A stretch of 64,000 bases of DNA from Candidatus Lindowbacteria bacterium RIFCSPLOWO2_12_FULL_62_27 (GCA_001784175.1 MFPR01000030.1:62001-126000); one strand, 5' to 3'; positions 1 through 11,370 are shown, counted from the first letter of the stretch. Made by a program: numbers and translations. Notes: generated by a model not told the origin, from the letters alone.

Positions 1-3000
1 TCGAGGCGGCGCCGCTCAGCGTCACGGTGTCGCCGGCGATGCGGACGGTGTCGGATCCCGCGACGGAGGCGAGGGGCGGCGTGTTGAGGCCGGTGCAGAT
101 GATGTCGTCCGGCGCCGAGGTGTCCTTGCCGTCGAAGACGCGGAGACGAAATACATACACGCCGTAGGAATCGATCAGGACGCTCGGCGTCGCCGTGTTG
201 GCGCCCAGAATCGCCGGGGTTGTCGGCCCGGACACCTGCGACCACGTGTAGGCGAGCGTGTCGCCGTTCAGGTCCGTTGAGGCGAGGCCGCTCAGGGTGA
301 TCGTGTCCGGATGAAGGATCATCGCGTCGGGGCCGGCGTTGGCGGCCGGCGGAACGTTGCCGGCGGTGACGCGGACGGTGTCCGGGGCCGAGGTGTCGAA
401 TCCGTCGTTGACTTCGAGCTGGAAGATGTAAGTGTCCATAAACGCGGTGTCGAGGACGAAGGTCGGACTCGCGACCGTGAAAGACGGCGTCAGGGCCACC
501 GTCGGGGCGCCGTTGGCAGTCTGGGTCCACCGGTAGGTCAGCGGGTCGCCGTTGGTGTCCATCGACGCGCTGCCGTTCAGCGTGTCGACCGATCCGGCCG
601 GGACGACGACGTCGAGGCCGGCGTTGGCGACGGGCGGGGTGTTGGTCGCGGTGATGAGGATCGTGTCGGTCGCCGTGTCCGTGCCGTCGTCGACCACCAC
701 CTGGAACAGGTACTGGGTCACGCTGTCGGCGGACGCGAAGGCCGGGTTGGCGGCCGACGGGCCGGGCACGAGTGACACAAGCGGGCCGGTGATCCGCGTC
801 CAATTGTACGTCAGCGTGTCTTCGGTGTCGGCGTCGGTCGAGGCGGCGGCGTTCAGAAAGACCGTGTCCTTCTTCGTCACGGTCGCCGTTGCCGGGCCGG
901 CGTCGGCGATGGGTTTCGTGTTGACCACCGTGTCCTGGACCGTGTCGGCGTTCGTGTCCGTGCCGTCGTTTACGACCAGTTGAAATACATACGTGCCTTT
1001 CAGCGTCATGTAGACGCTCGCGGTTGCGGCCGTGGGGTTATTGATCGTGACGGCCAGGCCGGAAAGTTGCGTCCACGAGTAGGTCAGGGCGTCGCCGGCA
1101 TCGCTGTCGGTCGAGGCCACGCCGACCAGGAGAATCGTGTCGTTGTTGGGGCGGGTCGTGTCGAGACCGGCGTTGGATACCGGGAGCGTGTTCAGGACCG
1201 TGACCAGCACGGTGTCGTACGAGGTGTCGACCGCGTCGTTCACGCGGAGCTGGAAGACGTAGACGCCCTTGTTGGTCATGAAGACGCTTGCGACCGCAGC
1301 CGACGCGTTGTTGATCGACGCGGCCGGGCCGGAAAGCTTTGACCACAAATAGGCGAGCGTGTCGCCGTTGGCGTCGGACGAGCCGGCGCCGTTCAGGGTC
1401 ACCGTGTCGTTGTTCGGGACGCTCATCGTGTCCGGGCCGGCGTTGGCGACGGGCGCGACGTTGCCGGCCGTGACGCGGACGGTGTCCGGGGCCGAGGTGT
1501 CGAATCCGTCGTTGACTTCGAGCTGGAAGACATAATCTCCGATGAAGGATGTGTCCAGGACGAAGGTCGGAGTCGAAACCGTGAAGGACGGCGTCAGCGT
1601 GACCGTCGGGGCGCCGCTCGAAAGCTGGGTCCACCGGTAGGTCAGCGGGTCGCTGTCGGCGTCGGTCGAGCCGCTGCCGGTCAGGGTGTCGGTCGATCCG
1701 GCCGCCGTGCCGTGATCGATACCGGCGTTGGCGACCGGGACCGCGTTGACGGCCGTGATCTCGACCGTGTCGGCGGCCGTGTCCGTGCCGTCGCTCACGA
1801 CCATCTGGAAGACATACTTGGTGACGCTGTCGGCCGACACGAAGGCCGGGTTGACCACCAGGCTGTTGGGCATCAGGGACACGAACGGGCCGGAAAGCTG
1901 TGTCCACGTGTACGTCAGGCTGTCGCCCGTGTCGGCGTCGGTGGAGGCGGCGCCGGAGAGGTAGACGGTGTCCTTCTTGCTGACCGTCGTGTCCGGGTTG
2001 GTGATCGCGACGGGTTTGGTGTTGAGCGCCGTGATCTGCACGGTGTCGAACGTTGTGTCCACCGCGTCGCTTACGCCGAGCTGGAAGACGTAGACGCCCT
2101 TGTTGGTCATGAAGACGCTCGCGACGGCGCTCGCCGGGTTGTTGATCGACGCGGTGGGGCCGGACAGCTTGGTCCACGAATACGTGAGCGAGTCGCCGTT
2201 GCCGTCGGACGAGCCGGCGCCGTTCAGCGTCGCCGTGTCGTTGTTCGGCACGCTCGTGTCCGGGCCGGCGTTGGCGACCGGCGGGATGTTGCCGGCGGAG
2301 ATGCGGATCGTATCGAAGGACGAGTCGCCGTAAACGTCCGTCACCGTCAGGCGGAACACGTAGGCGCCGGTGTAGGCCGAATCGGACGCGAACGACGGAT
2401 TAGCGGCGGTGGCGCCTGGCGTCAGCGTCATGACCGGGCCCGTCTCCTGGGTCCACTGGTAACTCAGCGAATCCCCGTCCGGATCGCTGGAGGCGGCGCC
2501 TGAGAGCGCCACCGTGCTGCCCGCCACGATGCCCGTGTCGGGACCGGCGTTGGCGATGGGCTTGCGGTTGATCACGCCGACCGGCAAGCCCACCGTGTCG
2601 TCGCCGCGGCCGGCGTAGGGGGCGTTGTTGAAGCCGATGTATCCGCCCGAGTCGCCGCCGGCGCCGCTTCGCGCCGTGGCCCGGATCGTCACGTCGATCG
2701 TGTCGTTCCGGGGCGCGGTGGGTTTCACGAAAATTGCGACTTTGATGTTCCCCGTCGAATCGGGCGGCAGGTTCAGAGACGATATCTGGGTCGCGCCCGA
2801 GGCCTCCCAGAAGCTGATGACCACGCTGTCGGACACGTCAAACCCGTTCGACCGGCGCTTGACGCTTGCCGCGCTGAAGAGCAGTGAGTCGGTGGCGTTG
2901 CCCGCGTTGGTGACCGACACGTCATGCCACGCCGTGTCGGGCGGGGGCATCACAAAGGTGTCGGGCGACAGGCGCGCCAGAGAATCGCCGTAGACGGCCG

Positions 3001-3229
3001 AGATCGTCGCGCTGACCGACAGGGGCGTCGTGGCGAACTTGGTGTCGTTGCCGGCCGGGCTGGTGACGGTGGCGACGATGTCGCCGGTTACATCCGCCAC
3101 GTTGGCCGCCCCGCCGTCTCCTCCAACGGCGATGACCGACCCGGCCAAAGCGCCTGCCGCGCGGACCTCGGAAGGACAGACCAGTCCCAGACTCGCCATA
3201 TATAATATGGAGAGGAGGAGAAGGGACAT
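1..3229 (-). CDS. Large secreted surface protein, partial (runs off the left edge): signal peptide, N-module shared with 3408-4514, then at least nine ~92-aa PKD/KIAA0319-like Ig repeats
   Basis: Absent from the ORF track, apparently because no stop lies in the window. Manual translation from ATG 3229 gives MSLLLLSILYMASLGLVCPSEVRA-AGALAGSVIAVGGDGGAANVADVTGDIV..., then repeats of PxANAGPDT..V.LxGxxSxDxxGDxLTYxWTQxSGP...YVFxLxVxD. The same frame still reads DTVTLSGAAS at positions 2-31. An in-frame GTG/TTG start slightly upstream is possible. Confidence 0.85.
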   Translation of the reverse strand, partial: MSLLLLSILYMASLGLVCPSEVRAAGALAGSVIAVGGDGGAANVADVTGDIVATVTSPAGNDTKFATTPLSVSATISAVYGDSLARLSPDTFVMPPPDTAWHDVSVTNAGNATDSLLFSAASVKRRSNGFDVSDSVVISFWEASGATQISSLNLPPDSTGNIKVAIFVKPTAPRNDTIDVTIRATARSGAGGDSGGYIGFNNAPYAGRGDDTVGLPVGVINRKPIANAGPDTGIVAGSTVALSGAASSDPDGDSLSYQWTQETGPVMTLTPGATAANPSFASDSAYTGAYVFRLTVTDVYGDSSFDTIRISAGNIPPVANAGPDTSVPNNDTATLNGAGSSDGNGDSLTYSWTKLSGPTASINNPASAVASVFMTNKGVYVFQLGVSDAVDTTFDTVQITALNTKPVAITNPDTTVSKKDTVYLSGAASTDADTGDSLTYTWTQLSGPFVSLMPNSLVVNPAFVSADSVTKYVFQMVVSDGTDTAADTVEITAVNAVPVANAGIDHGTAAGSTDTLTGSGSTDADSDPLTYRWTQLSSGAPTVTLTPSFTVSTPTFVLDTSFIGDYVFQLEVNDGFDTSAPDTVRVTAGNVAPVANAGPDTMSVPNNDTVTLNGAGSSDANGDTLAYLWSKLSGPAASINNASAAVASVFMTNKGVYVFQLRVNDAVDTSYDTVLVTVLNTLPVSNAGLDTTRPNNDTILLVGVASTDSDAGDALTYSWTQLSGLAVTINNPTAATASVYMTLKGTYVFQLVVNDGTDTNADTVQDTVVNTKPIADAGPATATVTKKDTVFLNAAASTDADTEDTLTYNWTRITGPLVSLVPGPSAANPAFASADSVTQYLFQVVVDDGTDTATDTILITATNTPPVANAGLDVVVPAGSVDTLNGSASMDTNGDPLTYRWTQTANGAPTVALTPSFTVASPTFVLDTAFMDTYIFQLEVNDGFDTSAPDTVRVTAGNVPPAANAGPDAMILHPDTITLSGLASTDLNGDTLAYTWSQVSGPTTPAILGANTATPSVLIDSYGVYVFRLRVFDGKDTSAPDDIICTGLNTPPLASVAGSDTVRIAGDTVTLSGAAS

Positions 3230-3235
3230 GCCTGG

Positions 3236-3300
3236 GATTTTAGATTTTGGATTTTGGATTTTGGATTTAAACCCAAAACCCGCAACCCGCAATCCGCATC
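3236..3300. repeat. Heptamer short tandem repeats (GATTTTG)n followed by (AACCCGC)-type units
   Basis: Sequence gattttagattttggattttggattttggatttaaacccaaaacccgcaacccgcaatccgc; the same unit recurs at 8858-8899. Confidence 0.8.
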
Positions 3301-3359
3301 CCACGGCGTTCAGTTCAGTCTTCCCGCCGTCAGGTCCGCGCATGCAGACTCCAATCTCT

Positions 3360-3394
3360 GTCGTCGTCATACCCGCGCAAGCGGGAATGACGAC
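3360..3394. repeat. REP-like hairpin (GTCATACCCGCGCAAGCGGGAATGAC), possible mRNA stabiliser or terminator after the major subunit gene
   Basis: Inverted repeat gtcgtcat-a-cccgc-gcaa-gcggg-a-atgacgac; same family as the element at 35120-35252. Confidence 0.7.
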
Positions 3395-3407
3395 CTGGAT
3401 CGCTGAA

Positions 3408-4514
3408 TTACTTAATGTAAACCCTGAATCTCACATACCCCGCGTCGACGTCCGGGGAGACCGCGTCCACCGTGCCGGCATTATCGCCGTTGGTCGGGCC
3501 CACGCCGAGGTTAAACGTCCACTTGATCATCGCCGCGGCCGGATCCGTGTCGCCCACGACAACGCCTGCGGTGTCCGTGATCGTGATTGTCGCCAGCGCG
3601 CCGGTGTGCGGGAACGCCGTCGCCGAATCGCCATTGGCGGCTGTCCCGAGCGTCGTGAACTGCGGGATACGGACCTTGATCGTGAAGCCCACGCCGGTGT
3701 CGTTTCCGTCGTTGTCGTAGCGGATCGTGTACTCGACTTTGGCGCCGGGAACCGTGTCGACCGCCAAGCCGGCATAGCTTGTCGGCGCCGAGATGATGGC
3801 CGACGTGTCGAGCGCCAGGCGGATATTCACATCCTTGACGTTCACGCCGAAGGTGACGTTCGCGTTGCCGTCGCCGGCGTACGAGTCGCCGTTAAAGCCG
3901 CCGTACCCGCCGGAATCGCCGCCCACGCCGTTGTTGGGCAGGGTCTTGATCACGGCGTCCGCCAGGCCCAGCGCGCCGGGCGTGTCGTGCGAGATGGTGA
4001 TCGTCACCTGCGTTTCCGCGCCGGGTGGAATCGATGAGAGGGTGAACGCGGCGTAGCTGTCGTTGCCGTTCTGGTAGATGGTCACCCCGTTGACCTTGAT
4101 GGTCACCGAATCCTTGGCCGCGCCGGTGACGGCGGCGGTGTCGGTCTTGATCTTGATGTTGTCCGTCACGTTGGCGTAGTTCGTGATGGCCAGCGTGAAG
4201 TTCGCAACGCCGCCCGGCGACAGGCCGAGGGTGGCCGCGCCGATGGCGCCGGCGGTGTCACCGAACACCGAGATGATGCTCGCCGAGAGGTTCGCGCCGA
4301 TGTTCGTCTTGAACTGCGTGTCGCTGCCGAGAGAGCTGGTATAGCTGGCGACGATGTCGCCGAAGACGTCGGCCTGGTTGGCCGAGCCTCCGTCACCGCC
4401 GACCGCGACGACCGAGCCGGAAGCCGCGCCGGAGACGTACTTGGCGTCCGCCGGAGCGCTCCAGACCAGTGCCAGGACCGCGATCGCAGCAATTGAAATC
4501 AGTAGTCTGTGCAT
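3408..4514 (-). CDS. Secreted 368-aa protein with N-module and DUF11-like C-module; putative major filament or surface subunit
   Basis: Signal peptide ending ADA; strong RBS GGAGGAGAAGGGAC-ATG; DUF11-like segment VPGAKVEYTIRYDNDGNDTGVGFTIKVRIP; ends DAGYVRFRVYIK. Confidence 0.85.
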   Translation of the reverse strand: MHRLLISIAAIAVLALVWSAPADAKYVSGAASGSVVAVGGDGGSANQADVFGDIVASYTSSLGSDTQFKTNIGANLSASIISVFGDTAGAIGAATLGLSPGGVANFTLAITNYANVTDNIKIKTDTAAVTGAAKDSVTIKVNGVTIYQNGNDSYAAFTLSSIPPGAETQVTITISHDTPGALGLADAVIKTLPNNGVGGDSGGYGGFNGDSYAGDGNANVTFGVNVKDVNIRLALDTSAIISAPTSYAGLAVDTVPGAKVEYTIRYDNDGNDTGVGFTIKVRIPQFTTLGTAANGDSATAFPHTGALATITITDTAGVVVGDTDPAAAMIKWTFNLGVGPTNGDNAGTVDAVSPDVDAGYVRFRVYIK

Positions 4515-4599
4515 GTCCCTTCTCCTCCAAAAAAGTTGTCGCTCAAACGAGTTGAGCCAGGATCTATGTCAAGGATTTCTCCTGAAATCTGTAACTTCG

Positions 4600-6801
4600 T
4601 CACTTGATGTAGACCTTATATTTTACGTACCCGGCGTCGTTATCAGACGTCACCGCGTCGACGACGCCGACGGCGTCACCGTTGTTCGGGGGCACGCCGG
4701 TGGTGAACGTCCATTTGATGCGCACGGCGTTGGGGTCGGTGTCGGCCACGACGTTGCCGGAATCGTCCATGACGGTGACTGCGGCTGTGGCGCCGACGTG
4801 CGGCATGAGGAACGCCGACGCGGCCGGGGAATCGGCGCCGGTGCCGAGCTGGGCGTTCTGCGGGATCTTGGCGGTCAGGACGAAATTGACGGCGGTGTCG
4901 CCGCCGTCGTTGTCGTAACGCAGGGTGATGGTCATCGCGGCGCCGGGGATCGTGTCGTTGGCGGCGCCGCCGTAAGAGGCCGGGGTGACGATCGTGTCCT
5001 GCGCGATCCCAATCAGGACTTTGGGCCGGCCGGAGATGACGCGCAGGACGCCCATCGAATTCATGTCGGTGTCCGGCGCGTCGCCCGTGAGGACATGGGT
5101 CGCGGCGGCTTTGAGTATCCTGGCGTCGATCGTGTCGTCCACCGGGGCCGTGTCGGTCACCTCCACCGTCACCATGAAATTTTTCGTATCGCCCGGTGCG
5201 AGGACCCGCGGCGCGAAAGTGAAATTGACCACGCCGCTCACCAGCGTGCGGCTGTCGCCGAGAATGTCGGCGGGTTCGAGGAGCCCCAGAATGCCCGTGT
5301 CCTCCCAGAGTTTGATGCCGAGCGGAACGAAGACGGTGTCCGGAGAGAGGATAATATTGACCTGAAGGCCGGTGATCGTGTCGGTCTGGCTGGCGTTGTC
5401 TTTCGGCAGGTCGTTCGTCACTGAAAACGCCATGATCACCGCCGTGTCGCCCTGCCGAACCTCGGTATCGGCGTTGCGGGCCTTGCCGTCGAGAACGGCG
5501 TTGACGACCGCGTTCACGATTTGCGAGTCGCCCACGTCGCCCGGGTCGGTGTATCGCATCCGGACGGTGTCGCCGGGCTGGATGTAAAGCTTGCCGCTGT
5601 TGTGCCCGTTGTCGGCGGAATTGCCGCTGAAGCGGAACTCGGTTTCGAAAATGGCGTTGTTGGTATCCTTTTCCGTCAACACGGGCGTTTCCTGCTCGCC
5701 GGAGCCGAGGTTGATCATCGTGATCGTGAACGTCTCCGCCACGGTCGGATTCGTGTTGACGCCGGTGTCGGTCACGCGGATCGTCATCGTCTCGCCGGGC
5801 GCGACGCCTATCACGCTCATCCCGCCGTGGATCGCCTGTAAAAGGCCGGCGGAGTTGGATGCGGGCGGAAGTCTATACCCCCAGAAGTTGGCGGTGTTGC
5901 CCGCAAAGGCATAAAGGGTGTCGCCTGAACCGGGATACACCAGCGCTCCGCCGTAAGACACGCCGGTCGGGGTGGCCGCCTTCGTGTCCCAGGTGTTCGT
6001 GCTGATGTGATAGGCCCAGAAATTGGTGCTGGTACCCCCGCGAAGAGCGTAAATGATGTCGCCCGAACCGGGATAGACCAACCCTCCGCCGTAATTCACG
6101 CCGGCCGGGGTGGATGCCTTCGTTGTCCACGTATCATTGCTGATGGAATATCCCCAGAAGGCGTCGCCCGTACTCCAGTTCCCCTCGAGGGCGTAAAGGG
6201 TGTCGCCCGAACCGGGATACACCAACGATCCGCCGTAATTCGTGTAGTTGGGCGCGGCCGCCTTCGTTTCCCACGTGTTGGTACTGATGGTGTATTTCCA
6301 GAAGGTGGTAGTGGTATTGCCCTGAAAGGCATAGATCGTGTCCGAGCCAGTAGCCACCAACGCTCCGCCGCGCATAACATTGCCTGAGACGGACGTCAGC
6401 GAAGTCCACGCGTTATTGCTGATGGAGTATCCCCAGAAGCCGGTGGTAGCGTTGCCGGCAAGAGCGTAAATGGTGTCGCCCGAGCCGGGATAGACCAACC
6501 CTCCGCCCTCGTCGACGCTGGCCGGGGTGGCCGCCCTCACGAACCATGAGTCGGCGGAAATGGAATACCCCCAGAAGGTGTTGGTGATGCCGCCTTGGAA
6601 GGCATAAATGGTGTCACCCGAAGCGGGACACACGAGCGACGCGCCATTACCCACGGAGGCGGGGGCGGACGCGCGGGTGTCCCAGGTGTCCGCCGCGTTC
6701 GCGTCGGGAGTGAAAAGTGCAAAGTGGAAAGTGAAGAGTGCGAGGATGAGGCAGACTTGGAGACAGGGGGACAAGGAAACAATGTTATTGACTTTTGCCA
6801 T
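4600..6801 (-). CDS. Secreted protein: six-bladed Kelch-like beta-propeller, Ig-like domains, and the C-module shared with 3408-4514; putative tip adhesin
   Basis: Start ATG 6801 after GGAG; signal peptide; six ~46-aa repeats W.TKAATP..V.YGG.LVYPGSGDTIYA..G....FWGYSIS; ends DAGYVKYKVYIK. Confidence 0.85.
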   Translation of the reverse strand: MAKVNNIVSLSPCLQVCLILALFTFHFALFTPDANAADTWDTRASAPASVGNGASLVCPASGDTIYAFQGGITNTFWGYSISADSWFVRAATPASVDEGGGLVYPGSGDTIYALAGNATTGFWGYSISNNAWTSLTSVSGNVMRGGALVATGSDTIYAFQGNTTTTFWKYTISTNTWETKAAAPNYTNYGGSLVYPGSGDTLYALEGNWSTGDAFWGYSISNDTWTTKASTPAGVNYGGGLVYPGSGDIIYALRGGTSTNFWAYHISTNTWDTKAATPTGVSYGGALVYPGSGDTLYAFAGNTANFWGYRLPPASNSAGLLQAIHGGMSVIGVAPGETMTIRVTDTGVNTNPTVAETFTITMINLGSGEQETPVLTEKDTNNAIFETEFRFSGNSADNGHNSGKLYIQPGDTVRMRYTDPGDVGDSQIVNAVVNAVLDGKARNADTEVRQGDTAVIMAFSVTNDLPKDNASQTDTITGLQVNIILSPDTVFVPLGIKLWEDTGILGLLEPADILGDSRTLVSGVVNFTFAPRVLAPGDTKNFMVTVEVTDTAPVDDTIDARILKAAATHVLTGDAPDTDMNSMGVLRVISGRPKVLIGIAQDTIVTPASYGGAANDTIPGAAMTITLRYDNDGGDTAVNFVLTAKIPQNAQLGTGADSPAASAFLMPHVGATAAVTVMDDSGNVVADTDPNAVRIKWTFTTGVPPNNGDAVGVVDAVTSDNDAGYVKYKVYIK

Positions 6802-6898: not shown

Positions 6899-7070
6899 TT
6901 GGCGAGGCAGGTTCGCACGAAAGGCCCTCCGACTTTTTGGTATTTGATCAGTCGGCCGGGCCTGTTTGGCACTTGACCGGGGTGGCTCCCTGCAGAAATA
7001 GCCTATTCATAAGTCCTATATCCATCCATATAATAGTCGGCAGGACCGACCCCTCAGTTAATACCTGCAA

Positions 7071-7109: not shown

Positions 7110-7125
7110 TGTGATCTGGGTCACA
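7110..7125. promoter_or_regulatory. Second CRP/FNR-family-type operator
   Basis: TGTGATCTGGGTCACA (ATT/AAT flanks), just upstream of the -35 box and overlapping the pgl stop codon. Confidence 0.65.
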
Positions 7126-7858
7126 ATCCCGGAATTGCGGCGTCGACCAGCCACGTCAGGCGGCCATTCGTGGGGCGGACGCCTTGGGACGGGTAGAGGT
7201 CGGCGTTCGGGGCGCCGTGGAGGACCTCGCGGAGGGCGGCGGCCTTGTCGGCGCCGGCGACCATGAAGAGGACGTGGGCGGCGGCGTTCAGGACCGGGTA
7301 GGTCAGGGTCACGCGGTCGGCGGGGGTCGGGGTGCCGGCGAATTTATCGACGTGGGTGGAGACCACCCACCGCTTCGTCTCATTCAGGGCGGCCGTGCCC
7401 GGAAAAAGCGATGCGGTGTGACCGTCGGGGCCCATGCCCAAGAGGATGAGGTCAAACCGCGGGAATGGGCGGTCATCGGTTTCGCCGAAGATGCGGAGGA
7501 GCGTACCCTCGTACTCGGCGGCGGCGATGTTGGGCGGGGCCTCGCCGCGGATGCGGTGGATCTGGCGTTTGGGGATGGAGACGTTCATGAGGAGGCTGGC
7601 GTTGGCCATGCGGTAGTTGCTGTAATCGCTTTCGGGGGTGACACAGCGTTCATCGCCGAAGAAGATGTGGACCTTTTGCCAATCGATCCTGTCCCGGTAC
7701 ATGTCCGCCGCCAGGAGTTCATACATGCCCCTGGGGGTCGAACCGCCGGCGAGTGCGACGGTAAACCGATCGCCGGCGCGGCCGACGGCCTCAGAGAAGA
7801 GAGCGGCGGCTTTCTGGAAGATTTCTCCGGGCGACGGGCAGACGATCAGGTCGGGCAA
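7121..7858 (-). CDS. pgl: 6-phosphogluconolactonase
   Basis: Motifs ALAGGSTP, FFGDERCV, LLGMGPDGHTASLFP, RVTLT; pentose phosphate operon context. Confidence 0.95.
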   Translation of the reverse strand: MPDLIVCPSPGEIFQKAAALFSEAVGRAGDRFTVALAGGSTPRGMYELLAADMYRDRIDWQKVHIFFGDERCVTPESDYSNYRMANASLLMNVSIPKRQIHRIRGEAPPNIAAAEYEGTLLRIFGETDDRPFPRFDLILLGMGPDGHTASLFPGTAALNETKRWVVSTHVDKFAGTPTPADRVTLTYPVLNAAAHVLFMVAGADKAAALREVLHGAPNADLYPSQGVRPTNGRLTWLVDAAIPGL

Positions 7859-7873
7859 GGCTTTTCCAAAGAA

Positions 7874-8851
7874 TCACCGCGTGGCCGCGTAGTACGCGGC
7901 GCCGAGGAGGGCGGTCTTGTCGTTGAGGATGACCTTGACCGGGATTTTTTTCAGGAGGTTCTGAAAGCGTCCCTTGGCGAAGAAGGCCTGCATGAAGGTC
8001 CCGTCCTTGAGCTTGTCGATGATCTTGGGCCCTATCCCCCCTCCGATGTAAAGTCCGCCGGTGGCCATGGCTTTGAGGGCGAGGTTGCCGGCCTCGGCGC
8101 CGTAGACGGAGACGAAGAGATCGAGCGTTTTGGCGCAGAGGTCGGACTTGCCGGCGAGGCCGGCTTTCGTGATGGCCGCGCTCGGGTCCATCTTCTGCAT
8201 CTCCTCCGTCAGCCACGCGGGTTCGGTTCCGAACCGGCCGGTCGATTTGAGGAAGTCATAGACGTTCTTGAATCCCGGGCCGGAGAGGACGCGCTCGCAA
8301 CTGACGTGCTGGGGCCATTTGGCCAGGAGGAATTTGAAAAGCTCGATTTCGAGGTCGTTGCGAGGCGCGAGGTCGGCGTGGCCGCCCTCGATGCCGAAGG
8401 CGTGGTGCGTTTCGCCGTCGAAGAACATCATGGCTTCGCCCAGTCCCGTGCCCGCGGCGATGACGGCACGGTTGCCTTTCGCTTTCGCGTCGCCGTCGTG
8501 GAGGACGTGAAAATCTGTTTTTTTCAGGACCGCGACCCCCCAAGCGTTGGACTCGAGATCATTCAAGAGCCACACCGGCGCACGCTTCAGTTTCCTTGAC
8601 AGCGCCTTGCCGTCCACGACCCACGGGAGGTTGGTGGCTTCGCAGCGGTTGCCGATGACCGGCCCCGCAATCCCGAAACATGCACGGTCGACCTTTTCCG
8701 GAAATTTTTTCAAATAGTCAGTGACGATCGCTTCAAGGCTCGAATTTTCCTTGCTGGAATAGGTTTTAAGATTTCGGGGCGTGTAGCAGTCCTTGCTGGT
8801 GAAAAAGGCGAGATTGGTTTTGGTGCCCCCGATATCACCGGCGAGGATCAC
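7874..8851 (-). CDS. glk: Glucokinase
   Basis: ILAGDIGGTKT, FGIAGPV, LLNDLE, GTGLG, EGGH, ERVLSGPG. GTG 8851 is preferred as start; the upstream extension is heptamer repeat. Confidence 0.95.
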   Translation of the reverse strand: MILAGDIGGTKTNLAFFTSKDCYTPRNLKTYSSKENSSLEAIVTDYLKKFPEKVDRACFGIAGPVIGNRCEATNLPWVVDGKALSRKLKRAPVWLLNDLESNAWGVAVLKKTDFHVLHDGDAKAKGNRAVIAAGTGLGEAMMFFDGETHHAFGIEGGHADLAPRNDLEIELFKFLLAKWPQHVSCERVLSGPGFKNVYDFLKSTGRFGTEPAWLTEEMQKMDPSAAITKAGLAGKSDLCAKTLDLFVSVYGAEAGNLALKAMATGGLYIGGGIGPKIIDKLKDGTFMQAFFAKGRFQNLLKKIPVKVILNDKTALLGAAYYAATR

Positions 8852-8857
8852 GGTTTT

Positions 8858-8899
8858 AAATCCAAAATCCAAAATCCAAAATCCAAAATCCAAAATCTC
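8858..8899. repeat. Heptamer tandem repeat (AAATCCA)x5 plus a degenerate unit, between zwf and glk
   Basis: aaatccaaaatccaaaatccaaaatccaaaatccaaaatctc. Confidence 0.85.
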
Positions 8900-8902
8900 A
8901 AT

Positions 8903-10420
8903 CTAATCACGGGGGTTCCACCACATCCGGCCCCGCTTTGCCATCAGCTTGTCGGACTCCTCCGGTCCCCAGGAGCCGGCGGCGTAGTTGGGGAATTTGC
9001 GCGCGGGGATGTTCTGCCAGATGTCGAGGATCGGCGAGCAGACTTTCCAGGAGGAGTCGACCATGTCGAACCGGGGGAAGAGGGTGTTGTCGCCGATCAT
9101 GACGTCGTAGATGAGGGTCTCGTACCCGGTTTCGGGCGCGGCGTGAAAATAGTTTTCGTAATTGAAATCCATCCGTACCGTCTTGAGCTTGACGGTCGGC
9201 CCCGGGATCTTGGCCTCGAACATGAGCGAGATGCCCTCGGACGGCTGGATGTTCATGATGAGGCGGCAGGGCTGGATCGATTCGATGTTGGCGTTGCGAA
9301 AGAGCATCATGGGCGCGCGATTGAACTGGAGGACGGCCTGCGTCATGCGTTTGGGGAGGCGTTTGCCGGTGCGCAGATAAAAGGGGACACCGGCCCAGCG
9401 CCAGTTTTCGATGTCCAGTCTCATCGCACAGTACGTTTCCGTATTGGATTTGGGATTGACCGACGGATCCTCGCGGTATCCCGGCACCGGCTTGCCGCCG
9501 ACCATGCCGGCGCCGTACTGGCCCCGGACGGTGGTTTCGAGGATGGCCTCCTCGGTCAGCGGCCGGATCGCATTGATGACTTTGACCTTTTCGTTCCGCA
9601 CATCCTCCGGCCGCAGGCTGATGGGCGGCTCCATGGCGATGACGGAGAGGACCTGGAAGACGTGGTTCTGGATGATGTCGCGGAGGGACCCGGCGGTGTC
9701 GTAATAGCCGCCGCGGCCTTCGACGCCGAGCGTTTCGGACACGGTGATCTGCACGTGGTCCATGTTGTCCCGGTTCCAGAGCGGCTCGAATATGCTGTTG
9801 GCGAACCGGAACATCATGATGTTCTGCACGGTTTCCTTGCCCATGTAATGGTCGATCCGGTAGACCTGGTCCTCCTCGAAGACCGAACAGATCTGCTTGT
9901 TCAGGTCGCGGGACGTGTCGATGTCGCGGCCGAACGGTTTTTCGACCACGATGCGCCGCCATCCGGCGCCGTTTTGACCGTCCGACCGCTGAAGACCGAC
10001 CTCGCCGAGCATCTGGGCGATGGTGCCGAAGAAGGCGGGCGGGACGGAATTATAGTAGAGGACATTCCCGCCGGTCTTGCGTTCGGCGTCGACCTGCTTG
10101 AGGAGCGCCGCCAGTTTTTCGAACCCGGCGCGGTCGCTGAAATTTCCGGTCTGATAGTAAAGCCCCTTGACGAATTCGCCGGCCCGGTCCAGCGGAATCT
10201 TGCTGCCGGCGAATTCCTTGAGATTGTCCGCCATGTAGGCGCGGAACTCATCATGCGACATCTCGCGGTTGGCGAACCCGACCACGGCGAAATTTTCCGG
10301 GAGGAGATTCTGATTCATCAAATTGTAGAGCGCCGGGATCAGCTTGCGTTTGCAGAGGTCTCCCGATGCTCCGAAAATGACAACGGTGCAGGGATCGCCG
10401 GGCCGGCCCTTTTCGGACAT
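8903..10420 (-). CDS. zwf: Glucose-6-phosphate 1-dehydrogenase
   Basis: IFGASGDL, EKPFG, YRIDHYMGKETVQN, RWAGVPFYLRTGK. Confidence 0.97.
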   Translation of the reverse strand: MSEKGRPGDPCTVVIFGASGDLCKRKLIPALYNLMNQNLLPENFAVVGFANREMSHDEFRAYMADNLKEFAGSKIPLDRAGEFVKGLYYQTGNFSDRAGFEKLAALLKQVDAERKTGGNVLYYNSVPPAFFGTIAQMLGEVGLQRSDGQNGAGWRRIVVEKPFGRDIDTSRDLNKQICSVFEEDQVYRIDHYMGKETVQNIMMFRFANSIFEPLWNRDNMDHVQITVSETLGVEGRGGYYDTAGSLRDIIQNHVFQVLSVIAMEPPISLRPEDVRNEKVKVINAIRPLTEEAILETTVRGQYGAGMVGGKPVPGYREDPSVNPKSNTETYCAMRLDIENWRWAGVPFYLRTGKRLPKRMTQAVLQFNRAPMMLFRNANIESIQPCRLIMNIQPSEGISLMFEAKIPGPTVKLKTVRMDFNYENYFHAAPETGYETLIYDVMIGDNTLFPRFDMVDSSWKVCSPILDIWQNIPARKFPNYAAGSWGPEESDKLMAKRGRMWWNPRD

Positions 10421-10425
10421 GGAAC

Positions 10426-11370
10426 TTATTTGGCCTTGACGGGCGCCTTGCGCGGGCCGACGGTCTGGCCGGCGGCGGTCTTGACGGCGTGTCCGCCGAA
10501 CTGCTGGCGAAGCGCGGCGACGACCTTGTCGGCGTACTCCTCCTCCTCGCGGGAGCGGAACCGCGTGAAGAGGGACATGGCGAGGACCGGCGCGGGCACG
10601 TCCTCGTCGATGGCGGCCTGCAAGGTCCATCGGCCTTCGCCGGTGTCCTCGACGTAGCCCTTGATGTTGGCGAGTCCGGGGTCGGCCTTGAAGGCGTCCT
10701 CGAGAAGCTCGCAGAGCCAGGACCGGACGACGCTGCCGCGGTTCCAGACGGCGGCGATGGCGCCGAGGTCGAGATTAAACGGGGATTTGTGAAGGACGGC
10801 GAATCCCTCGCCGTAGGCCTGCATCATGCCGTATTCGATGCCGTTGTGAACCATCTTGACGAAATGCCCGGCGCCGGCCTTGCCGCAGTGGATGTATCCG
10901 TTTTCCGGCGCGAGCGTCTTGAAAATGGGATCGAGCCGCTTGAATATTTCCTTGTCGCCGCCCATCATCATGCAGTAGCCGATCTTGTAGCCCCAGATGC
11001 CGCCGCTGGTGCCGACGTCCATGTAATGAATGCCCTTTTTCTTGAGTTCCTCCGCGCGGCGCGCGTCGTCCGTGAACTTGGAGTTGCCGCCGTCGATCAG
11101 GACATCGTCCTTGTCGCACATGTCCGCGAGCGCGTAGAGCGTTTCGTCGGTGGGCTTGCCGGCGGGAACCATGACCCAGATGGCGCGGGGTTTTTTCATT
11201 TTTGAAACGAGTTCCTTGAGGGTGAAGGCGCCCTCGACGTTTTTGATTCTGGCGAATTCCTTGACGGTGTCCTCCCCGCGGTCAAACGCGACGATCTTGT
11301 GCCCGCCCTCCGCCAACCGCTTGACCATGTTGCCGCCCATTCTTCCCAAACCGACCATTCCGAGTTGCAT
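10426..11370 (-). CDS. gnd: 6-phosphogluconate dehydrogenase, decarboxylating (short type)
   Basis: GLGRMGGNM, IDGGNS, DVGTSGG, GHFVKMVHNGIEYG, QFGGHA. Confidence 0.96.
   Translation of the reverse strand: MQLGMVGLGRMGGNMVKRLAEGGHKIVAFDRGEDTVKEFARIKNVEGAFTLKELVSKMKKPRAIWVMVPAGKPTDETLYALADMCDKDDVLIDGGNSKFTDDARRAEELKKKGIHYMDVGTSGGIWGYKIGYCMMMGGDKEIFKRLDPIFKTLAPENGYIHCGKAGAGHFVKMVHNGIEYGMMQAYGEGFAVLHKSPFNLDLGAIAAVWNRGSVVRSWLCELLEDAFKADPGLANIKGYVEDTGEGRWTLQAAIDEDVPAPVLAMSLFTRFRSREEEEYADKVVAALRQQFGGHAVKTAAGQTVGPRKAPVKAK

Follow-up and report, generated by a model that had tools for sequence, protein, structure and literature searches.

The genes A, B and C, at the start of the 64,000-nt stretch of Candidatus Lindowbacteria bacterium RIFCSPLOWO2_12_FULL_62_27, an uncultured bacterium from groundwater, that was analysed (G000:C30:62001-126000; hereafter the window, within which positions are counted), encode three proteins that share two modules unequally. 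A ends in a C-module, B consists of an N-module followed by a C-module, and C starts with an N-module. The question raised by this locus is whether the shared modules join the three proteins into one structure at the cell surface, and through what kind of joint. We put the chance somewhat above one half (about 0.55) that A, B and C form one cell-surface assembly by trans strand complementation of a split DUF11/CLIPPER domain, on a base anchored through the type IX secretion system (T9SS). This reading is supported by the sharing of modules, the mapping of a truncated domain, the gene order, a sorting domain and an in-silico fit.

Sharing of two modules by A, B and C

All three genes are co-oriented on the minus strand. 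Read by eye in the translations, the N-termini of A, B and C are hydrophobic and lead into a motif of small residues of the cleavage type; AlphaFold predicted a helix at residues 2-18 of B. The C-module is common to residues 229-368 of B and 595-733 of A (BLASTP, 55% identity over 142 amino acids (aa), E 3e-41), and the N-module is common to residues 1-~228 of B and the start of C (BLASTP, 33% identity, E 2e-27). The sharing of modules between A and B and between B and C is far beyond chance. The initial annotation had described three co-oriented secreted proteins built from N- and C-modules, and the minus-strand open reading frames (ORFs) bear this out.

Close relatives of B were few (nine), and an exhaustive profile search gave 369 proteins. 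This family contained many N+C proteins of ~350-400 aa, proteins ending in a C-module, proteins starting with an N-module, and large proteins with tandem DUF11 domains. Two giants among the 369, P0036 (2277 aa) and P0133 (1799 aa), had internal N+C units; in these T9SS-tailed proteins a unit of a carbohydrate-binding-module-like (CBM-like) domain, an N-module and a C-module occurred three times per chain.

The Pfam family PF01345 (DUF11) was matched at E<=0.01 by 23 of the 37 N+C family members, three of which exceeded the family cut-off (P0030 with 39.5, P0136 with 32.1 and P0114 with 28.2 bits); B alone scored 13.9 bits against a cut-off of 24.6. Judged by these profile matches, the C-module belongs to the DUF11/CLIPPER sequence family. 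DUF11 was recently renamed CLIPPER; the preprint places it in the stalks of fibrillar adhesins and describes an isopeptide bond between a Lys and an Asn within many of these domains (bioRxiv 10.1101/2025.04.25.650565). DUF11 proteins of about 380 aa were found across many phyla.

Truncation of the DUF11/CLIPPER domain

The C-module was aligned by hhalign to a reference profile of 119 columns made from 21 canonical tandem DUF11 repeats, which came from four family matches. It aligned with columns 2-73 (probability 98.7%, E 3.3e-16). The last 51 residues of the C-module placed the end of the protein at column 86 of 119, right after the penultimate strand (hhalign, E 0.0057); because the proteins stop there, no complete single-chain sandwich with a closing strand behind the penultimate one was found. 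In G000, 16 of 17 C-module matches ended no more than 5 aa from the stop codon, and only one complete internal canonical DUF11 domain was found.

The mature N-terminal segment mapped to columns 87-100, the strand that carries the bond Asn, and was thus contiguous with the end of the C-module; the segment is too short for this match to reach significance (E 0.23). Three N-termini weakly matched columns 85-115 with hmmsearch (independent E 0.02-0.05). From these alignments, the C-module appears to be a DUF11/CLIPPER domain that breaks off behind the penultimate strand, and the motif of the missing strand appears to lie at the mature N-terminus of B and C. Because the C-module is truncated and the missing strand is found at the N-termini of B and C, binding of N to C would most likely be strand complementation of a split domain.

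The two residues of the isopeptide bond were followed at both ends of the proteins. Lys in strand A of the C-module and Asn in the N-terminal strand (n = 37) were both present in 20 cases and both absent in 13, with Lys only in three and Asn only in one. Their joint absence required at least three changes on a quick tree. A, B and C, together with an 11-member clade of B, were without both residues, so the Lys-Asn isopeptide pair was not found in the three proteins. The pair is also stated not to be universal across the CLIPPER family in the available part of the preprint (bioRxiv 10.1101/2025.04.25.650565). Since both Lys and Asn were lost in the A/B/C lineage, the joint between these proteins would be non-covalent.

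Predicted structures of B and of the A:C pair

The AlphaFold model of the B monomer, made from an alignment of the 37 N+C proteins, was confident and closed (predicted local distance difference test (pLDDT) 90.2, predicted template modelling score 0.76), and the N-terminal blocks at 31-60 scored 86-90. B may therefore complement itself in cis, and its polymerisation into a filament is for the same reason unproven. A model of B from a 10-sequence alignment (pLDDT 51.9) was set aside.

Fold searches of B (Foldseek against the PDB, and others) returned generic matches to tandem immunoglobulin-like (Ig-like) domains and beta-sandwiches, with Z up to 9.6. No CLIPPER structure was among the fold matches listed, and the pilin matches (CfaB, CooA and EcpA, Z 7.8-8.8) were no better than those to unrelated beta-sandwiches. 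WxLIP was the sole match when the PDB was searched by sequence with the family profile (E 0.05). The N-module of B (residues ~92-203) showed a weak likeness, not significant, in sequence (E 0.05) and structure (Z 8.0-8.4) to the WxL-interacting protein of Enterococcus faecium, a member of a cell-surface complex made up of several proteins.

A complex was modelled from the N-part of C (210 aa) and the C-module of A (149 aa), both without a partner half of their own. The A:C pair scored 0.78 (0.79, 0.77 and 0.78 in the three runs), and the best of three controls scored 0.00. In the calibration of this score, 58 of 80 solved complexes reached the mark, against 2 of 110 mismatched pairs. Contact agreement between the A:C runs was at least 96%, with a partner pLDDT of at least 82. 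On the C side, the predicted interface comprised residues 1-3, 7-12 and 21-34 of the donor segment, and included the two N-terminal strands, a third strand, the Asn of the N.GN motif and the Gly-rich loop. On the A side it comprised strand A, the strand with the PG motif, the next strand and the last four residues.

The model supports binding between A and C and does not in itself show it. The initial annotation had proposed that the N-module of one protein binds the C-module of the next. A fit in trans is predicted, and its interface consists essentially of the motifs listed there; the contact is best read as the completion of a split domain by the N-terminal strands of the next protein and a Gly-rich loop, and not as a docking of two whole modules.

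The probable anchor end of the locus

C extends beyond the window into a conserved tail of ~585 aa. At the end of this tail lies a T9SS type A sorting domain, with 30.7 bits for TIGR04183 (cut-off 23) and 26.0 for PF18962 (cut-off 27). Four further co-oriented genes, D, E, F and G, follow C outside the window. D encodes a PorV/PorQ-like barrel, whose match to NF033709 (82.3 bits, E 4.7e-23) falls slightly short of the cut-off (90). Because C carries a type A sorting domain and the gene of a PorV/PorQ-like barrel stands next to it, C is likely the anchor. The stalk of C contained K319L-like PKD repeats in at least nine stretches (Pfam, E 1.5e-109). Both the PKD-like stalk of C and its part as the anchor had been put forward before, and these matches agree with them.

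A cassette consisting of the C tail, E, F and G, here at G000:C30:54705-61842, was present at about ten G000 loci with 35-58% identity, its paralogs lying on contigs C20, C14, C18, C28, C43, C19, C1 and C2. As the cassette is repeated at about ten places, the anchor end is generic and only the N-module is special to the A/B/C type of locus. The cassette has the look of an undescribed, general-purpose unit of the outer membrane that displays or anchors passengers of widely differing kinds.

Sorting domains of the T9SS type were found in at least 32 G000 ORFs (on C2, C40, C6, C19 and others), some in frames of 10,454 and 22,286 aa. A search of G000 with the SprA and PorU models gave one weak match to SprA (69.9 bits against a cut-off of 200); the PorU model matched 32 ORFs in its sorting-domain part only, with no catalytic part. 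Secretion and attachment may depend on different machinery in this lineage than in the Bacteroidota.

Gene order across loci and genomes

We surveyed 13 loci with a free-standing N+C gene in four genomes of the phylum (five in G000, three in G001, four in G002 and one in G003). An upstream ORF on the same strand that ends in a C-part was present at 12 of 12 assessable loci, the remaining locus being cut by a contig end. A large downstream ORF with an N-part right after the signal peptide was present at 11 of 11, two loci being cut by contig ends. Seven of these 11 downstream ORFs were N-only; the other four were N+C with an extension and, where tested, a sorting domain. Some loci (C19a and G002:C35) had two different N+C genes. 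The order of a protein ending in a C-part, one or more N+C genes and a large protein starting with an N-part therefore recurs at paralogous loci and in related genomes, and the test of C-only, N+C and N-only synteny set by the initial annotation came out positive.

One independent ortholog locus was found, L007 (G001:C10), with an identical seven-gene order from A to G. Its A has a different head and its C is without PKD repeats. L007, L009 and L010 gave identical match statistics and are apparently one sequence.

At class II loci (L003 and L004) the distal proteins are giant adhesin-like ORFs of 5542 aa (G000:C19:52443-69068) and 2187 aa (C23:753-7313) that end in a truncated DUF11 part. At these loci the Lys is retained in the acceptors, and Asn or Asp in the donors next to them. 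These sister loci would, on residue content, be better candidates for a covalent lock between proteins. Several sister loci with giant-adhesin distal pieces in one genome suggest a system with exchangeable heads. Beside the repeated unit of P0036 and P0133, a separate protein of ~420 aa with a similar C-terminal motif is encoded between the giant adhesin and the N+C gene in the class II loci of G000, a possible fusion link between these components.

Proposed assembly and alternative explanations

In the assembly that we propose, the N-terminus of one protein would complete the C-terminal domain of another, in a joint of the donor-strand type formed without chaperone or usher. The missing strands would be those behind the signal peptide of B and C, which precede an extra beta-sandwich with a Gly-rich loop. 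C would be the base, with its N-part probably displayed at the tip of the long PKD stalk, and A would be the distal piece, acceptor only, behind its propeller-like head. B, with both halves, would serve as a linker, or as a shaft if it opened and chained. The joint would be non-covalent in this lineage. What we infer from the evidence above is a fit in trans inside cells, the sequence in which the parts would join, their place at the surface and, should it occur, the polymerisation of B. The arrangement keeps the polarity suggested at the outset: distally a protein with the C-module alone, proximally an anchor with the N-module alone.

Several points weigh against the proposed assembly. The mapping of the N-terminal strand was not significant alone (E 0.23), and the B monomer was predicted to be closed with its N-terminal strands included. 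Both alignments used for the A:C model contain the same N+C proteins, so the pass may only copy the packing inside B-type proteins, just as the two parts of a split gene would. In P0036 and P0133, N+C units are found within one giant chain. A T9SS sorting domain is missing from both A and B, which leaves their crossing of the outer membrane unexplained. The four genomes all come from a single family and cannot count as independent. At loci of classes II and III, the upstream C-parts form a subfamily of their own (49-73% mutual identity), and their similarity to the neighbouring C-module is at family level only. Finally, the giant protein on C25, whose C-module is closest to those of A and B, has no N+C gene downstream.

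A true filament would be a special case of the proposed assembly, with many copies of B chained head-to-tail between anchor C and tip A as a T9SS-anchored, adhesin-tipped pilus. B has both the donor and the acceptor half, its apparently strongest ribosome-binding site and the hairpin after its stop codon would fit a major subunit made in excess, an N+C gene always stands between the C-only and the N-first genes, and the trans fit of the A and C halves could be modelled. However, the monomer model of B is closed and confident, no chaperone is present to hold subunits open, the A/B/C lineage has no isopeptide lock, and the two different N+C genes at C19a and G002:C35 look more like ordered adaptors than one repeating shaft subunit; we regard a filament as unlikely. 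The closed monomer speaks instead for a plug and socket only, in which the C-module of A docks on the N-part of C at the tip of the stalk and rebuilds the fold that B has in one chain, with no filament. B, complementing itself as a monomer, would then serve some other purpose, for instance that of a soluble competitor, a cap or an adhesin in its own right, and the giants at other loci would dock likewise. The A:C model passes, A and C are the sole two of the proteins without a partner half in cis, and N+C units act as ordinary domain pairs in P0036 and P0133. The retention of an N+C gene between the partners at all 13 loci would nevertheless go unexplained, as would the standing of B as apparently the best-translated gene, and we hold this explanation to be about as unlikely as the filament.

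It is doubtful, too, that there is no assembly at all, with the three proteins secreted or placed at the surface independently of one another and each put together from shuffled Ig-like domains, the C-module being a shared domain for sorting, secretion or wall binding and the N-module a shared cap. Truncation at the same strand in 16 of 17 G000 cases, the presence of the missing motif at N-termini, the co-variation of Lys and Asn between the two ends, the strict gene order and a complex model that passes with controls at 0.00 all speak against it. On the other hand, genomes with much T9SS cargo often have such shuffled Ig-like domains, the stalks of fibrillar adhesins commonly contain DUF11 according to the preprint (bioRxiv 10.1101/2025.04.25.650565), and DUF11 proteins of ~380 aa occur in many phyla. 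The family-level similarity of the class II and III C-parts, the C25 giant that stands alone, and the lack in A and B of a known outer-membrane export signal, for which the C-terminal beta-sandwich could serve, would fit such separate proteins as well. A two-dimensional surface layer of B, in place of a fibre, is highly improbable: B is small, secreted, apparently abundant and made of Ig-like domains only, and the surface-layer domains SbsC and Sap were among its generic fold matches (Z 7.4), but these matches are within the noise of generic beta-sandwiches, and the polar donor and acceptor logic with tip and anchor partners points to linear assembly.

An extended form of the proposed assembly, which we consider a long shot, has B chaining by runaway strand exchange into a non-covalent fibre that would run from the N-terminus of the T9SS-anchored stalk to an exchangeable adhesin head. 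This head would be the propeller protein at the present locus and the giants of 2000-5500 aa at sister loci. As a T9SS sorting domain is found on the anchor alone, assembly of the distal subunits would take place in the periplasm, and they would leave by hitch-hiking on C; such hitch-hiking of A and B is speculation.

Features of the locus

The coordinates of the features are given in the table. The Kelch-like propeller attributed to A in the initial annotation was upheld only as far as its six ~46-aa repeats go, all Kelch and propeller Pfam matches in this head being sub-threshold (Kelch_6, 21.2 bits against a cut-off of 25.3). Propellers paralogous to it were found on contigs C24, C6, C34 and C7. 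The middle region of A was 47-51% identical to the C25 giant protein and to the G001 ortholog of A, and its comparison with the N-module by hhalign was not significant (E 0.055). The ribosome-binding site and hairpin ascribed to B are both present. B is preceded by a GGAGGAG Shine-Dalgarno sequence at about 4520-4530, and the hairpin has a predicted stability of -27.1 kcal/mol (z -3.6), which 0 of 200 shuffles equalled, but has no U tract.

Features of genes A, B and C (window positions) and of genes downstream of C
Feature	Position	Strand	Description or basis
Gene A	4600-6801	minus	733 aa from ATG; alternative longer GTG start at 6972 possible
Gene A putative signal peptide, residues 1-36	6694..6801	minus	hydrophobic N-terminus by eye
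Gene A variable head, six ~46-aa propeller-like (Kelch-like) repeats	5872..6693	minus	repeat spacing
Gene A Ig-like middle part, perhaps with a degenerate N-like sandwich	5035..5871	minus	
Gene A C-module (predicted acceptor), DUF11/CLIPPER domain apparently truncated after the penultimate strand	4603..5034	minus	
Gene B	3408-4514	minus	368 aa
Gene B putative signal peptide, residues 1-24	4443..4514	minus	
Gene B N-terminal two-strand segment, residues 25-62, candidate donor strands	4329..4442	minus	
Gene B N-module beta-sandwich with Gly-rich GGDSGGY...YAG loop	3831..4328	minus	AlphaFold model
Gene B C-module (predicted acceptor), apparently truncated DUF11/CLIPPER	3411..3830	minus	hhalign
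Hairpin 3' of the B stop codon	3363..3394	minus	13-bp stem, no U tract
Gene C	start 3229, continues past window edge	minus	1715 aa in contig
Gene C putative signal peptide	3158..3229	minus	
Gene C N-terminal donor segment (candidate)	3050..3157	minus	in predicted interface with A C-module
Gene C N-module beta-sandwich with Gly-rich loop	2564..3049	minus	N-module hidden Markov model, E 1.5e-39
Gene C PKD (K319L-like) stalk	2..2563	minus	Pfam; continues beyond window to the ~585-aa conserved tail
Gene E	outside window, downstream of C		alginate-export-like barrel
Gene F	outside window, downstream of C		173-aa protein
Gene G	outside window, downstream of C		FecR-domain protein

An intergenic region of ~320 bp precedes gene A, which suggests that the operon starts at A. 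Housekeeping genes, named by eye as 6-phosphogluconolactonase-like, glucokinase-like and glucose-6-phosphate dehydrogenase-like, lie immediately upstream of the operon at 7121-10630 on the minus strand. Between B and C, at 3235-3300, is a G-rich and then A-rich repeat that translates as '..FGFWILDFGF..'. The same repeat was seen at ORF starts at 8893 in the window and at 9058 in L001, so that it is intergenic or at apparent gene starts.

Implications

If the proposed assembly is correct, Gram-negative bacteria would be able to make surface structures of several proteins by dividing an ordinary stalk domain of adhesins into halves, which would meet without chaperone, usher, sortase or ATPase. 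A function would then be at hand for many of the ~380-aa DUF11 proteins across phyla, and the two halves would be a natural tag and catcher pair. It also raises the question of how proteins without a sorting domain leave organisms that use the T9SS. A fibre growing from a T9SS-anchored stalk would, if true, be both a new type of pilus and a new use of the T9SS.

Comparison with known systems

In chaperone-usher pili (type 1, P and CFA/I) the incomplete Ig fold of a subunit is completed by the N-terminal strand of the next; the tip is acceptor-only, the terminator is of the donor type, and a hairpin follows the gene of the major subunit. As proposed, A, B and C would resemble them in the incomplete Ig fold and N-terminal strand, the acceptor-only tip, the donor-type terminator and the hairpin after the gene of the putative major subunit. 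The domain family is different, however, and the proposed base, C, bears a T9SS sorting domain. When A-G were scanned with Pfam and NCBIfam, neither PapD-like chaperone nor usher genes were found, the rest of the genome not having been searched for them. For a subunit of the chaperone-usher type, without its last strand and with an N-terminal extension, the sequence mapping and the predicted A:C model agree, and cis complementation of B is possible.

T9SS cargo can have a dedicated outer-membrane partner, as SprB has SprF, and PorV/PorQ act with the sorting domains of cargo. C is similar in having a type A sorting domain and the gene of a PorV/PorQ-like barrel next to its own. To our knowledge, known T9SS adhesins are single chains; unlike them, the proposed distal parts A and B are separate proteins without a sorting domain.

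Type V pili (FimA/Mfa1) found no counterpart here, as A, B and C do not have the Cys of a lipoprotein signal peptide where cleavage is predicted, and no FimA/Mfa matches came from Pfam or NCBIfam. For TasA/BsaA fibres, the Pfam and NCBIfam scans of A-G gave no Peptidase_M73/TasA or SipW-type peptidase matches. BsaA of Clostridium perfringens, of the TasA family, is described in the available part of its source as assembling by 'donor-strand exchange and lock' (bioRxiv 10.1101/2024.11.04.621531), and archaeal threads, in the part consulted, as chaperone-free fibres in which an N-terminal segment is inserted into the sheet of the next subunit (PMC9715654). As far as these excerpts go, the proposed assembly is like them in that no chaperone is involved, an N-terminal segment enters the next subunit, and the Asn/Lys pair could lock the joint in relatives of A/B/C. 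It differs in that their fold and family are unrelated, they are Gram-positive or archaeal, they have no T9SS-type anchor in the descriptions at hand, and class I (A/B/C) is without lock residues.

The Tat-fimbriae (tafi) of Haloarcula hispanica have, according to the available text, a tip (TafC), an adapter (TafE), a major subunit (TafA) and a terminator (TafF) (PMC11821415). An ordered set of tip, adapter or major subunit and terminator joined by donor-strand exchange, encoded in one cluster and without a chaperone-usher machine, would be common to tafi, as that text presents them, and to A/B/C (PMC11821415). Unlike A/B/C, tafi are described there as archaeal and Tat-dependent, built from other domains (DUF1102-like relatives) and with a membrane-anchored terminator (PMC11821415). 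Papers pairing DUF11 with a donor strand were rejected, the pairing being due to DUF1102 or to an unrelated use of the term DUF11.

The closest relatives by sequence are the CLIPPER/DUF11 adhesins. The C-module falls in this family, presented in the available part of the preprint as an Ig-like sandwich of surface proteins (bioRxiv 10.1101/2025.04.25.650565), and distant N+C members keep the Lys of the first strand and the Asn of the closing strand. The same part of the preprint describes intramolecular bonds in tandem complete domains (bioRxiv 10.1101/2025.04.25.650565). In contrast, the domain of A and B appears to be cut after the penultimate strand at the protein C-terminus, with the closing strands at the N-terminus of another chain or of its own, and neither the Lys nor the Asn is left in A, B and C. 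No publication on a split CLIPPER domain or on a fibre anchored by a T9SS sorting domain was found in the literature searched, which covered main texts and not supplements. The defining components and folds of chaperone-usher pili, BsaA, archaeal threads and tafi were not found in the scans of A-G, and the principle by which A, B and C would join is, by analogy, that of donor-strand-complemented fibres.

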